Origin: Candidatus Thorarchaeota archaeon | GTDB lineage: Archaea > Asgardarchaeota > Thorarchaeia > Thorarchaeales > Thorarchaeaceae | Length of the DNA: 64,000 nt | Assembly: GCA_048882485.1 (NCBI GenBank) | Contig: JBHLRP010000010.1 | Location: 8,431-72,430, forward strand | Reading direction: 5' to 3' | Shown: one piece after another, positions 8,360-44,899 of the stretch | Layout: every line of letters starts with the position of its first letter | Numbering within the stretch: the first letter of the stretch is position 1 | The notes under the pieces: generated by a model | What the model saw: the letters and a program-made list of their open reading frames with translations, nothing else | What the model was told of the DNA's origin: nothing | The model's database searches: none | Made by a program: the position numbers and the translations under genes

Positions 8360-8482
8360 TCGCTTTGATTCAGAGTCCGCGATAAGTCATTCTGTCATCT
8401 AGCACTATAGATGTGAGGTCCTCTCGGTTCCCACAGGAGCAAGAGGACCTATTGAGGAGTGCGAATATAATCAAACAAGCGC

Positions 8483-14733: not shown

Positions 14734-15912
14734 TCACATCGCCTTTGGTTTATATATTGGAGACATTCCTCGAATTCGATTGAGTATCTCTGGAGTTGCT
14801 TCGAGGACCCTTTCAATGTCATCATCAGTGTTGAATCTTCCAGGTGTAAGCTGTAGTGATCCATGTGCTTCTTCGTGAATAAGCCCAGTTGCAATAAGAG
14901 TTGTTGATGGGGCAAGAGTCTTGGAGGTACAGGCAGAGCCCGTCGACACAGCGATTCCTTTGTCCTTGAATGATAGGAGTAACGACTCGCCTTCCACGCC
15001 ATCAAACCTGAAATGGGCATTGCTTGCGAGTCTTTCTGTTGGATGGCCATTGAGATGGCTATCTGGAATCTCGCTCAGTATTGTACTAATCAAGCGGTCA
15101 CGATATCCCTGAAGCCGGCTGACTTCGTCTGGCATTTCTGTCTTCATTATTTCGATGGCATGTTTCATCCCAACGATTCCTGCAACATCCTCAGTCCCTG
15201 ACCTCAATCCTCTTTCCTGACCGCCTCCAATCAAAATGGGATTGACTCTATATCTCTTCTTCATGAACAGTACCCCTACTCCTCTGGGGCCATAGAAGTC
15301 ATTCGATGACAGGGACATGAGGTGAATTCCATCTCTCTTGACATCAATTGGCACCAATCCTTGAGCTGCCACCGCGTCTGTGTGAAATGCAATTCCCTTA
15401 TCCTCAGCCAATTTTCCAATTTCTCGGATTGGCTGAATCGTACCGATCTCATTGCTGGCATATTGAATTGAGATGAGTAATGTATCATCTCTTATTCTGC
15501 GTTCTAGCTTCTTCAATGGCACCCGTCCATACATATCCACAGGCACCTGTGAAACCTCGAAGCCTTGTCGCTCCAGGTATTTTCCTATATTTCTAACAGA
15601 GATATGTTCAACCTCTGAAATGATTATGTGGTTCCCTTTTCTCTTGTTCTTCATGGCGTAGCCTATTAGGGCCATGTTGTTTGACTCAGTTGCACCAGAT
15701 GTGAAGATGATCTCATCATAGTCGGCATTGATGTAATCTGCAATAACCCGTCTACTCTCTTCAAGAGCCTCCGTGGCTACGTCCCCCACATGGTGAAGAG
15801 CTGAAGCATTACCAAAGCGCTCATGGAAATAAGGTAGCATGCCCTCAATAACACGCGGATCTACAGGCTTTGAGCTTTGGTAGTCCAGATACACCTCTCT
15901 TACGTCGCCCAC
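14734..15912 (-). CDS. iscS: IscS/NifS-like protein with Asp replacing the PLP-binding Lys
   Basis: FTSGATESNN, FHTDAV, SSNDFYGPRG (canonically SxHKxYGPKG), GGGQERGLRSGT, STGSAC. Confidence 0.88.
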   Translation of the reverse strand: MGDVREVYLDYQSSKPVDPRVIEGMLPYFHERFGNASALHHVGDVATEALEESRRVIADYINADYDEIIFTSGATESNNMALIGYAMKNKRKGNHIIISEVEHISVRNIGKYLERQGFEVSQVPVDMYGRVPLKKLERRIRDDTLLISIQYASNEIGTIQPIREIGKLAEDKGIAFHTDAVAAQGLVPIDVKRDGIHLMSLSSNDFYGPRGVGVLFMKKRYRVNPILIGGGQERGLRSGTEDVAGIVGMKHAIEIMKTEMPDEVSRLQGYRDRLISTILSEIPDSHLNGHPTERLASNAHFRFDGVEGESLLLSFKDKGIAVSTGSACTSKTLAPSTTLIATGLIHEEAHGSLQLTPGRFNTDDDIERVLEATPEILNRIRGMSPIYKPKAM

Positions 15913-42215: not shown

Positions 42216-42608
42216 GTGAGTGCCAAATTCGCCAAAGAGGTGAATGTATTCTCTAGTGCCAACCAGGTATTCCAAGAGACTCACGAACCTTTCGTCAAGC
42301 CTTCTTTTGAGAGCCTCGCTGCATCATTCTTGTCTCTAGCAGATATGAGAATGAGTGAGACTCAGAAATACGTTCTGAGAGTGAGTGCCCAGCTGTTAAG
42401 GCATAATGATCTGACAGTGACGGCATTAGCAGACCAGGTATCACGCAGGGCTTCAGTTGCCTATAGCACTGTGAAATGGAATCTGCGATCCTTAATGGAC
42501 TTGGGTTTGCTATCTGGCGGTGATATGGAAAACAGAGGACAGCTGGCAAAGCTTACAGCAACTGCTGTAATGTTGGCTAACTTCCTCGAAGAACAGTATT
42601 ACAAGTGA
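42216..42608 (+). CDS. Winged-helix DNA-binding protein
   Basis: TVTALADQVS....VAYSTVKWNLRSLMDLGLL followed by wing LT. Confidence 0.7.
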   Translation: MSAKFAKEVNVFSSANQVFQETHEPFVKPSFESLAASFLSLADMRMSETQKYVLRVSAQLLRHNDLTVTALADQVSRRASVAYSTVKWNLRSLMDLGLLSGGDMENRGQLAKLTATAVMLANFLEEQYYK

Positions 42609-42655
42609 GAGGCGGGATCACCTTCGAGAGTAATCCCCTCTCATTCTCTTTTTTT
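42605..42655 (+). terminator. Hairpin plus U-tract terminator between convergent genes
   Basis: GTGAGAGG-CGGGATCAC...GTAATCCC-CTCTCAT followed by TCTCTTTTTTT. Confidence 0.6.
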
Positions 42656-42676
42656 CCACTGCTTGCCGCGGGTTGC

Positions 42677-42728
42677 AACCCGGCCTCCATCGACACCGCA
42701 TTACTTTAGGTGTAGATATCATCGGATT
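42677..42728 (-). promoter_or_regulatory. Eukaryote-type SECIS element overlapping the stop codon
   Basis: AAUCCG-A-UGAU-AUCUACACC-UAAAGUAAUGC-GGUGUCGAU-GGAG-GC-CGGGUU: helix I, AUGA/GA core, about 10-bp helix II, apical AAA. Confidence 0.75.
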
Positions 42729-43522
42729 TTCTTGTTGAAGAAGCCCCATGCCATATTGATGAGGCTTCGAACCTCGTCAAGACCGTGCGCGGAGGCGAGG
42801 ACAAGATCAACCGAACTGCTATCACCCGGCTTCAAATCACCTAGGTTGCACTGCAGACCGGTGGCAATGTCCTTCGGTCCCGCTTCGGGATTGTTCTTTA
42901 GGTCGCGCTTTTCTGATTCTACCTTGAGCTTCAGTGGAGATGATATCTCCCAGCCATCAGGACTCGGCTGTGAGGAAATGGCTACAGAAACCTGGCTTTC
43001 ATCATAGGCAATGACGATTCCGTTCTTTTCGTCATAGGTGCCCATGTCGTCTTTGTAGCTCATTGGACCTCCTATATCGAAGTCGAAGATGCTGTAGACC
43101 TTGAGGTCTTGGACCATGCTGGAACTGACGTTCGTTGTCGTATGCCGGAGTAGCAAGACAGGTTTGTTGTAGCTCCACAAATCAAGTGTGAAGTTGACCA
43201 CAGGTTCCTCGAATTCTTGAGGTGCGTGGCTCATCACTAGTCTTAGGCTACCTTTCTTCTGCTTTCGCTCCACGACAGCGATGGTGTCAGCTTCCGTCGA
43301 CTCGACGACAGCTACAGTCCCATCTGCGACATAAGACGCCCAGATACCGCCTTTATAGTCAGCAGGATTCTTGAGCAGTAGTCGTTCCTTTCCGGTGGGA
43401 TCTATCAGTCCGAGGCGTCTGATGTAGAAACCGATGCGACCTACGCCTCATGACGCACATTCAACAGCATAACTGATGTCGAGCCTTGGACGTCGGTTAC
43501 CGGTTTCAAAGATCTCGGACAT
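42719..43522 (-). CDS. Candidate selenoprotein, 267 aa, N-terminal CxxU motif (CASU) on a predicted beta-sandwich body
   Basis: ATG 43522; MSEIFETGNRRPRLDISYAVECAS-TGA(43450..43448)-GVGRIGFYIRRLG... continues in frame into track ORF 42719..43273; SECIS at 3' end. Confidence 0.8.
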
Positions 43523-43663
43523 GACCGACCACGTTCCTATGCTGATTTCTCCGAGTTTCCTAGAGTTAAAAGCTCTACCATACATAAGCCGCACAACTAC
43601 GCCTGGGTCACAAAGTTGATAAAGTGCACTCGGGAAACCCTTTCGAATCTCAGGTGGATTTCA

Positions 43664-44899
43664 ATGACGACCCTCACAATCGATCAGCTTCAGAAATGGT
43701 ATCGAAAGCGTCTAAGCAATATGTCCAAGGATTTCACGAAAAAGGCAGAAAAGAGCTACAGGATTGTAGAGCGGTCTTTGAAAGATATTCAGGATATATC
43801 TCGAAATCTGAAGGAACCAGGTGAAGATGATGACCCTGATTCCACAGGGATTGCTACGAGATTCGCAATGAAGATTGAAGACATTACAAATGATTTCTAT
43901 GTTGGTAAGGACATAACATATGAAAGCACCGAGTCACTTCAAGAAGGGATTCGAAGCTTCATCCAAGAACTCTGGGGTGCCGGCGCTCGTTGGATTAGAC
44001 GGATGGACAAGAAGCACAAGAGTACTATCAAGCAGCTAGATGTCAGCATGAAAGAACTTATGTCCGAGATGAACAAGATACAGAAGCTCCTTTACGAATT
44101 CAGCTGGCTGAAGGATTTAGAGCGTATAGGTGGTAGAATCCAGACTCTGCAAGATCTTGGCTTTAGTAAAGAGGTATACGAAGAGCAAATTCGTACAACT
44201 CGAGCAAAGATCGAAACAGCAATGACAGAATATGACTCAGCAAAGAAAGCCTATGAGGAATTCACTGAAACTTCAAATGTAGCTGATTTGCTGAACATCG
44301 ACTCTGAAGCAGACCATATTGCGAGTCTATTGAGAATGAAACTGAATCCCCTCAAGAAGCAGGTGAAGAAGTTCTTTCAACATGATACTGGAGTAAGAGT
44401 AGGTTCGACAGGGCAGAAGGCATTGAACGACTACTTCGAGAACCCCTATGATGCCATCGTGGAAGAGCCAATCGGCTATCCTGGATTATTGGAGGGATTA
44501 GCCGGTTTGAGAGAGGCAATTGAGAAAGGCAAGCTTCCTATGAAGGACCGGCTGGCAAGAAGGGCTATTGAGGAGGTCCAAGCCATCAGTAGTGGATCTC
44601 TGAGTGAGCTTCAGGAGAAAGCAAAGGAACTGGAAGAGAAACGTCATGCTTTTGCTGATTCTGATGTATACACGAAGAGTGCAAAACTGCAAGAGGAATT
44701 GAATGAAGCTGAGAGGAACTTGGAGTATCATCGAAGTGACATGCTAAGGATTAGAGATGATATCAATCGTGAGATTGATCGTGCAAAGGACTTCAAGGTG
44801 AGGATTGAATCCGAGATTCTAGAGTCCTTTGAGGAAAAGGTAAAGCTTCAGATAGAGATTTCTCTTGAGCCCCTTCTCGAGAAGACCAAAACTGCATAG
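43664..44899 (+). CDS. Coiled-coil protein of unknown function
   Basis: Heptad-rich; AGGTGG RBS before ATG 43664 (track start 43616). Confidence 0.65.
   Translation: MTTLTIDQLQKWYRKRLSNMSKDFTKKAEKSYRIVERSLKDIQDISRNLKEPGEDDDPDSTGIATRFAMKIEDITNDFYVGKDITYESTESLQEGIRSFIQELWGAGARWIRRMDKKHKSTIKQLDVSMKELMSEMNKIQKLLYEFSWLKDLERIGGRIQTLQDLGFSKEVYEEQIRTTRAKIETAMTEYDSAKKAYEEFTETSNVADLLNIDSEADHIASLLRMKLNPLKKQVKKFFQHDTGVRVGSTGQKALNDYFENPYDAIVEEPIGYPGLLEGLAGLREAIEKGKLPMKDRLARRAIEEVQAISSGSLSELQEKAKELEEKRHAFADSDVYTKSAKLQEELNEAERNLEYHRSDMLRIRDDINREIDRAKDFKVRIESEILESFEEKVKLQIEISLEPLLEKTKTA

Follow-up and report, generated by a model that had tools for sequence, protein, structure and literature searches.

Does the single in-frame UGA of a gene from a Candidatus Thorarchaeota archaeon end translation, or does it encode selenocysteine (Sec)? 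The gene lies on the minus strand of a 64,000-nucleotide stretch of contig JBHLRP010000010.1 (assembly GCA_048882485.1, contig positions 8,431 to 72,430), here called the window; all positions are given in window numbering, and the contig labels C6, C8, C46, C65 and C88 belong to the same genome. Asgard genome families, DNA loci and database proteins carry coded labels (f, L and P, respectively). Judged from sequence comparison, the gene very probably encodes a real Sec protein of an uncatalogued family that is specific to Asgard archaea. The argument starts from three features:

42719..43522, minus strand: putative full selenoprotein coding sequence, Met1 to Arg267 (267 sense codons plus the terminal TGA)
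43448..43450, minus strand: UGA codon 25 (U25, read as Sec), TGA in 32/32 loci, with Cys aligned in CxxC homologues
43457..43459, minus strand: TGT codon 22 (Cys22), the C of C-x-x-U three residues ahead of Sec, the same in all of 31 Thorarchaeia sequences

The frame opens with an ATG at 43522-43520 and closes with a TGA at 42721-42719, and its single internal stop is the TGA at 43450-43448, readthrough of which gives ...Y-A-V-E-C-A-S-U-G-V-G-R.... The original prediction had described a hidden candidate selenoprotein with a CxxU motif, and its ATG at 43522, its TGA at 43450..43448 and its C-A-S-U were all reproduced on the minus strand. Codons 26-83 contain no stop and no ATG, GTG or TTG, which is why the open reading frame (ORF) lister placed its start at GTG 43273, codon 84; the resulting 184-residue ORF is a truncation of the full gene. 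UGA is not reassigned in this genome, where it ends 348/932 open frames of at least 400 codons (37%) and thus serves as an ordinary stop.

The TGA at codon 25 is conserved far beyond chance. Related loci were taken from metagenome-assembled genomes (MAGs) of Thorarchaeota, Hermodarchaeota and Promethearchaeota (33 loci, 31 of which span codon 25), and codon 25 is TGA in all 32 Thorarchaeia loci, that is, the 31 relatives and the window, all from different assemblies. In a sample of 201 genomes across the phylum, each of the 34 matches that span codon 25 carries exactly one TGA. Contigs from independent sequencing runs span the codon too, and there is no difference at this site among the matches listed. 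The start ATG is kept in 30/31 loci, with in-frame stops just upstream of it and no conservation there.

Conservation on both sides of the TGA was likewise found. The peptide that runs through the site is strongly conserved (M-S-E-x-L-x-T-G-N-R-x-P-R-L-D-x-x-Y-x-V-E-C-x-S-U-G-x-G-R-x-G-F), and conservation is highest in residues 1-60, which hold 21 of the 40 invariant columns in a 31-sequence alignment. At codon positions 1/2/3, sequence pairs diverge by 0.23/0.13/0.53 over codons 1-24 and by 0.22/0.14/0.48 over codons 26-60, and upstream of the ATG the divergence is flat at 0.63 for all three positions. The shared codon-position pattern points to purifying selection acting on both flanks of the UGA. 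The first possible start after the UGA wanders between codons 27 and 109 across the loci, and none is conserved. A word-indexed search of 5.8 billion proteins returned 28 homologues of 159-241 residues, all from Asgard MAGs; all 28 begin after the UGA position and are N-terminally cut ORF calls. The loci were also inspected for homologues that start after the TGA with no upstream peptide; the upstream peptide proved to be conserved instead. One public record of the family, P0038, is a fragment of 119 residues with Trp at the UGA position. It is evidently an annotation artefact, translated with a table in which TGA is Trp, and not a real Trp form.

Alternation of Sec and Cys at a single column is a classical signature of Sec. 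A family profile search over 1.84 billion representatives gave 102 matches. Relatives of full length, found in other Asgard MAGs, have Cys at the Sec site, either as V-x-C-x-Q-C-x-x-C-x-G (P0049, P0079 and P0130) or as I-C-x-N-C-x-E-K-G (P0082, P0048, P0053, P0056 and locus L056). The CxxC or CxxCxxC of these Cys-containing orthologues aligns to C22/U25, and both columns are invariant in the joint alignment (A5). Further Sec subfamilies carry a TGA at the homologous site, giving C-T-V-U (L040), C-K-W-U (L041), C-I-T-U (the L054 group) and C-S-K-U (L055 and L079), and they too are called as cut ORFs in the databases. In f9, loci L061, L068, L070-L074 and L076 keep Sec and replace Cys by Leu or Tyr (I-L-A-T-U, I-Y-A-T-U). 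The Cys at -3 is therefore missing from many f9 proteins and the CxxU pair is not family-wide, so that the proposed CxxU redox motif, which may apply to Thorarchaeia, where Cys22 and U25 are invariant, may not describe every member.

The end of the gene overlaps a predicted Sec insertion sequence (SECIS) with the following parts:

42684..42724, minus strand: eukaryote-like SECIS (eSECIS-like), type II, with a covarying stem; 49.9 bits with covariance model R1
42722-42719, minus strand: SECIS AUGA, formed by the last base of codon 267 and the stop UGA
42717-42710 paired with 42696-42689, minus strand: SECIS upper stem, 8 pairs
42709-42697, minus strand: SECIS apical region, unpaired UAAA and a 2-bp ministem
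42687-42686, minus strand: SECIS core GA, which closes the AUGA...GA core

Because the stop is the UGA of the SECIS AUGA, the terminal stop is TGA in 32/32 loci; the preceding base is A in 30 of them and G in two. After [A/G]UGA come one spacer base, the 8-bp stem, [C/G]-U-A-A-A and the 2-bp ministem with its 3-nt loop, followed by the returning stem strand, one spacer base and G-A-G. RNAalifold recovers the 8-bp stem unguided, with compensatory double changes in 8/8 pairs (32 sequences). Over these 32 sequences 94.9% of upper-stem cells pair in the full structure; when the 3' partners are slid by 1-3 columns, only 35-52% of all structure cells pair, versus 84.3% unslid, and 0/500 shuffles reach any observed pairing measure.

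The type II eSECIS-like model of Huang et al. 2024 (PMC11227280) comprises a core of 5'-GA...[G/A]A-3', an upper stem of 7-15 bp with at most two mismatches, a bulge of 4-12 nt, a ministem of 2-8 bp and an apical loop of 2-6 nt. The element here falls within every one of these limits: [C/G]UAAA with a single 3' base makes up the bulge, the ministem consists of GC/GC (in the window itself, G-C and U.G) and the apical loop has 3 nt. Its GUAAA loop matches the G[U/G]AAA loop that the same study describes as characteristic of frhA in Thorarchaeia. Both this study and, for Loki VhuU.1, Mariotti et al. 2016 (PMC4989117) point out that the AUGA may include the stop UGA. SECIS elements of like design stand behind two other genes of this genome, namely selD, which itself contains Sec and likewise stops at the UGA of an AUGA, and an frhA-type gene ending in ...C-Y-D-C-U-L-S-C-G-A-H....

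A descriptor applied to the 3' ends of the other subfamilies found a SECIS-like element downstream of 18/18 Sec-form loci in f9, 2/2 in f16 and the single locus L041 (1/1), not behind L040 (0/1), and in 0/2 Cys-form loci (L060 and L078). This amounts to 21/22 Sec-form loci versus 0/2 Cys-form loci, with shuffled sequences matching in 0.5-8% of trials. The f9 elements mostly read AUGA-U-UCAAAUAA-AAAA...-UUAUUUGA-U-GA, which is the A-rich Loki type. The descriptor is loose, with 271 matches genome-wide, and is useful only beside candidate genes and with shuffle controls.

The genome holds the machinery that Sec insertion would use. A tRNA-Sec (59.3 bits, above the Rfam cut-off), SepSecS (374 bits) and SelB (277 bits) were found together on contig C88, along with a SelD (211 bits) that has one in-frame TGA itself; PSTK was seen as a contig-end fragment only, in an assembly that is 90.5% complete. 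Across the sample the family was found in 78/201 Asgard genomes, in four coded families, the other 23 having no matches. SepSecS is present in seven coded families, and the selenoprotein family is confined to four of these:

f1 (the family of the genome studied here): family gene in 34/43 genomes, SepSecS in 37/43; Sec forms
f9: family gene in 36/40, SepSecS in 38/40; Sec forms
f16: family gene in 5/5, SepSecS in 5/5; Sec forms
f24: family gene in 2/3, SepSecS in 3/3; the two loci read are Cys forms
f7: family gene in 0/5, SepSecS in 4/5
f13: family gene in 0/3, SepSecS in 3/3
f19: family gene in 0/6, SepSecS in 6/6
20 other coded families: family gene in 0/95, SepSecS in 0/95

The sampled genomes are related to one another, and these counts are descriptive rather than a statistical test. 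The family is Asgard-specific and is seen only in Sec-using lineages.

AlphaFold2, run on the 31-sequence alignment, produced a model (predicted local distance difference test 88.7, predicted template modelling score 0.89) that is almost all beta, with one C-terminal helix. The N-terminal 60 residues are built into the sandwich as two strands, and C22 and U25 sit in the turn between strands 13-21 and 30-40; Sec and Cys22 would thus sit together where the chain turns tightly from the first long strand into the second (C-A-S-U-G). According to this model, the protein is a stand-alone beta-supersandwich of 267 residues. Foldseek and VIA-align both matched it to the N-terminal beta-supersandwich of GH15 glucodextranase/glucoamylase (Z 23.2 and 22.7, 2.3-2.4 A over ~227 residues), the superposition on 1ulv having Z 23.2 and a root mean square deviation of 2.3 A over 227 residues. 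VIA-align gave Z >20 for ten entries, and the GH15/GH94-type domains fall at Z 21-23 and 2.3-2.6 A over 226-237 residues with a Foldseek expectation value (E) of ~1e-9; galactose mutarotase-like proteins score lower, at Z 14-16. The guess that the body is a beta-sandwich of carbohydrate-enzyme type and not a thioredoxin fold is borne out at the level of prediction. By sequence the protein matches nothing in Pfam (E up to 1) or NCBIfam release 20 (E up to 0.1), and a search of the PDB with the family profile returned noise only (best E 0.26). Protein-language look-alikes of the part after the UGA are unnamed clusters and weak GH94_b-supersand/SOGP_N matches, which serve as a lead only. Inspection by eye shows neither a signal peptide nor a membrane segment, which suggests a cytoplasmic location.

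Taken together, we propose that translation starts at ATG 43522 and yields a 267-residue cytoplasmic selenoprotein from one gene, with UGA codon 25 decoded by Sec-tRNA(Sec) and SelB under the direction of the SECIS ~730 nt downstream. The AUGA of this SECIS contains the gene's terminal UGA, so that the close-by UGA would terminate while the distant UGA is recoded, as proposed for Lokiarchaeota by Mariotti et al. (PMC4989117).

Other explanations of the UGA would have to account for the same observations. A sequencing or assembly error, or a recent inactivation that left a pseudogene, could explain why gene callers read the TGA as a stop and why every database protein of the family is cut; but the same TGA recurs in 32/32 independent assemblies and 34/34 genome matches, contigs from independent runs span the site and both of its sides appear to be under purifying selection, which leaves this explanation a vanishingly small chance. 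It is also very improbable that the locus comprises two cistrons, namely a conserved 24-residue leader peptide ending at the UGA and a downstream protein made by reinitiation or from a non-canonical start. UGA is indeed a common stop in this genome, yet no start after the TGA is conserved, the first one lying anywhere in codons 27-109, and Cys-form homologues are continuous through the site. Moreover, residues 1-60 form two strands of the sandwich in the fold model, and the SECIS accompanies Sec forms and not Cys forms. Hardly more probable is readthrough of UGA-25 without Sec, whether by near-cognate Cys or Trp insertion or by SelB-free recoding, with the 3' structure acting as a stability or termination element. 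The Trp of P0038 would fit such readthrough, although it evidently stems from the TGA=Trp table, and the 3' element has the core, spacing and A-rich loop of a SECIS and matches the SECIS of the Sec-SelD and frhA-type genes. The restriction of the family to SepSecS-bearing lineages and the Sec/Cys alternation at one column also speak against it.

Several observations weigh against a Sec protein, or against one working as the CxxU motif suggests. PSTK is represented by a 57-bit fragment of 91 positions, below the cut-off and at a contig end. In the window itself a U.C mismatch interrupts the upper stem, and the lower helix AAGAAGA/UCUUCU, with ~70% of cells supported, is missing in the window's own clade. 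An Rfam search of 42400-43600 with E up to 10 gave no match, the eukaryotic SECIS models missing the element. R1, which was built from the family's own SECIS elements, matches only the window SECIS and one other element in this genome and does not recognise SECIS elements of the frhA/selD type or of the distant subfamilies; it is therefore too family-specific to serve as a cross-check. In metatranscriptomes, one contig from a relative (~94% identity) spans 43280-43529, where DNA carry-over is possible, and no cover of the 3' end of the gene or of the SECIS was seen; the RNA is too weak for a claim of expression. Finally, the lack of Cys at -3 in many f9 proteins weakens a family-wide selenenylsulfide mechanism.

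If U25 is Sec, what does it do? We infer that the selenol is the functional group. Sec is the invariant element across the Sec subfamilies, joined in Thorarchaeia by Cys at -3 and Gly at +1, a pattern that would suit one essential selenol exposed on a hairpin. U25 may be a redox-active nucleophile with Cys22 as the resolving thiol in Thorarchaeia, a role whose chances we place a little short of even. Alternatively, the C-x-x-U-G turn may be a metal-binding knuckle in which Sec ligates a soft metal or cluster and other residues or a second subunit complete the site. By its C-x-x-[C/U]-G sequence the beta-hairpin turn may be likened to knuckles of the rubredoxin type. Three Cys-form clusters carry three turn Cys (CxxCxxC), and their strand aligned to residues 122-131 holds a fourth; the many f9 proteins that keep Sec without Cys fit one essential ligand or nucleophile more readily than a pair of the dithiol type. 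On the other hand, the turn of the Thorarchaeia proteins offers only two candidate ligands, and PDB sequence matches to the aIF2-gamma knuckle region are at noise level (E 0.26-0.6). A soft-metal ligand is a possible but rather unlikely role for U25, and some role other than these two is slightly less likely again.

The gene neighbourhood differs among lineages. In 20/20 f9 and f24 loci (L058, L060-L078) the family gene directly follows, on the same strand, a gene that encodes a Roadblock/LC7-Ras fusion GTPase (~310-320 residues), and this adjacency is common to Sec and Cys forms. Complex prediction for the GTPase and the adjoining Cys-form protein of L060 scored 0.01, which weighs neither way on binding. 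In f16, a single genus that includes L059 and L079, the family gene lies at most ~1.5 kb from SepSecS in 5/5 genomes, with a GcvH-like gene between them (Pfam-checked in L059 only). A radical SAM gene stands on the other side of the family gene in L059. Neither the GTPase nor the SepSecS adjacency holds in the Thorarchaeia loci, where the conserved genes nearby encode a coiled-coil/BAR-like protein, a winged-helix-like protein of small size and a D-aminoacyl-tRNA deacylase. This arrangement is kept in ~30/32 loci and looks like general synteny that points to no function. The divergent neighbour in the window (43616-44899, plus strand) encodes a 427-residue coiled-coil protein with a weak BAR match (E 8e-4, below the cut-off), and it is syntenic with the selenoprotein gene across the loci compared (n=32). 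A more speculative proposal, and in our view an improbable one, is that a lone Sec (the Cys beside it being dispensable) on a supersandwich of carbohydrate-binding type makes the protein a novel selenoenzyme or selenium-dependent sensor with a chemistry that no known selenoprotein performs, which in Loki-type lineages would work with the upstream Roadblock-Ras GTPase.

A further RNA structure follows the SECIS:

42665..42684, minus strand: second short G+C-rich hairpin with a UGCA loop, directly 3' of the SECIS core

This hairpin, with a GCA-containing loop and variable outer pairs, folds in 29/32 loci, and a like hairpin stands behind 7/7 SECIS-like elements compared in this genome. Such hairpins begin 2-6 nt past the core GA and usually have a UGCA(A) or AGCA loop (C6:~30100, C46:~18690/21280/22440, C8:~77615 and C65:~15730). 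Pairing of the flanks can enclose both hairpins in a lower helix, a layout like that of a three-way junction. No description of a SECIS with a second hairpin was found in the Asgard SECIS literature compared. Another helix, AAUCCG/CGGGUU, can form in the window and was rejected; other loci lack it, and it competes with the conserved second hairpin.

SECIS-like elements were also seen elsewhere in the same genome. Four near-identical cassettes, at C46:18730, 21321 and 22481 (minus strand) and C8:77572 (plus strand), each comprise an frhA-type 3' end, namely the last ~20 codons (...R-E-I-V-R-K-E-L-V-T-G-G-G-stop), and a SECIS. One copy only continues an open frhA-type frame, and the other three look like duplicated 3' ends that serve adjoining genes. 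On C65, a 69-codon ORF at 15415-15723 (L042:1501-1809) has an N-terminal membrane helix and a Thr-rich linker and reads ...P-P-C-T-T-G-[TGA]-G-P-P-L-L... before a terminal TAG. A SECIS almost identical to that of the window (56 bits with R1) and a GCA-loop hairpin follow ~60 nt past this ORF, and the TGA, the following 12 codons, the TAG and the SECIS are kept in two other genomes of the genus. The ORF is possibly a second unlisted selenoprotein candidate.

How the protein relates to known selenoproteins can be judged from published lists. Huang et al. 2024 (PMC11227280) used homology with known selenoproteins to search >400 Asgard genomes and arrived at seven families, of which Mariotti et al. 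2016 (PMC4989117) and Sun et al. 2021 give subsets; a 2026 review gives the same family list for archaea. None of the seven families of PMC11227280 is a supersandwich protein or is related to this one by sequence or fold, and the protein thus falls outside these Asgard families and has no Pfam or NCBIfam model. The family is absent from published archaeal selenoprotein lists, as far as the searchable literature shows. It has no characterised Cys homologue, and selenoproteome searches based on homology would therefore miss it. The suggestion that this could be a new selenoprotein family has gained support from the conserved UGA, the Cys homologues and the SECIS. What is new is the protein family, its fold context and the Sec variants that lack Cys; the mechanism of Asgard decoding is known.

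With the other Asgard eSECIS-like genes (SelD, FrhA/VhuU, HdrA, FrhD/VhuD and Prx-like) the gene shares an in-frame UGA, a SECIS of the AUGA...GA kink-turn type just past the gene, unpaired A's atop an 8-10 bp stem and a stop that may be the UGA of the AUGA, but its protein differs in sequence and fold. Thioredoxin-fold CxxU/UxxC proteins (SelW/SelT-type, Prx-like, DsbA-like and AhpF-N-like) likewise pair Sec with a Cys three residues away and have homologues in which Cys replaces Sec; here, in contrast, the fold is not thioredoxin, the motif sits in a beta-hairpin turn instead of at the N-terminus of helix 1 and the Cys is dispensable in many relatives (L-A-T-U). The fold match extends over the whole chain of the protein and covers the N-terminal domains of GH15 (1lf6 and 1ulv) and GH94 (2cqs), the GP domain of cyclic glucan synthase (8rf9), GH116/GH65 and galactose mutarotase-like proteins. 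Sequence identity to the GH15/GH94-type N-domains is 8-17%, and the protein lacks their adjoining (alpha/alpha)6 catalytic domain, ending after the sandwich. To our knowledge, no GH15/GH94-type supersandwich domain carries Sec or a CxxC turn at the corresponding place, and we know of no earlier case of Sec on a supersandwich fold. Profile matches (E 1e-15 to 1e-4) also link query residues ~100-260, including the D-F-D-x-G-G and G-P-x-D motifs, to an unannotated supersandwich domain at the start of long multidomain proteins that also contain transglutaminase-like, CarboxypepD_reg or PKD domains (P0050-P0129). Some of these long proteins are secreted, and the matches examined lack the N-terminal Cys/Sec hairpin.

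With 78/201 genomes the family would be one of the more widespread Asgard selenoproteins, yet all of its annotations are those of a cut hypothetical protein, which points to an undercount of the archaeal selenoproteome. That the conserved N-terminus is lost is a systematic annotation error that can be corrected in databases. The covarying set of SECIS elements may serve the study of the transition from archaeal to eukaryotic SECIS, and the natural Sec, Cys and Cys-less Sec variants may help to dissect the role of the selenol. If the sensor/GTPase reading were true, it would tie selenium or redox state to a eukaryote-like GTPase module.

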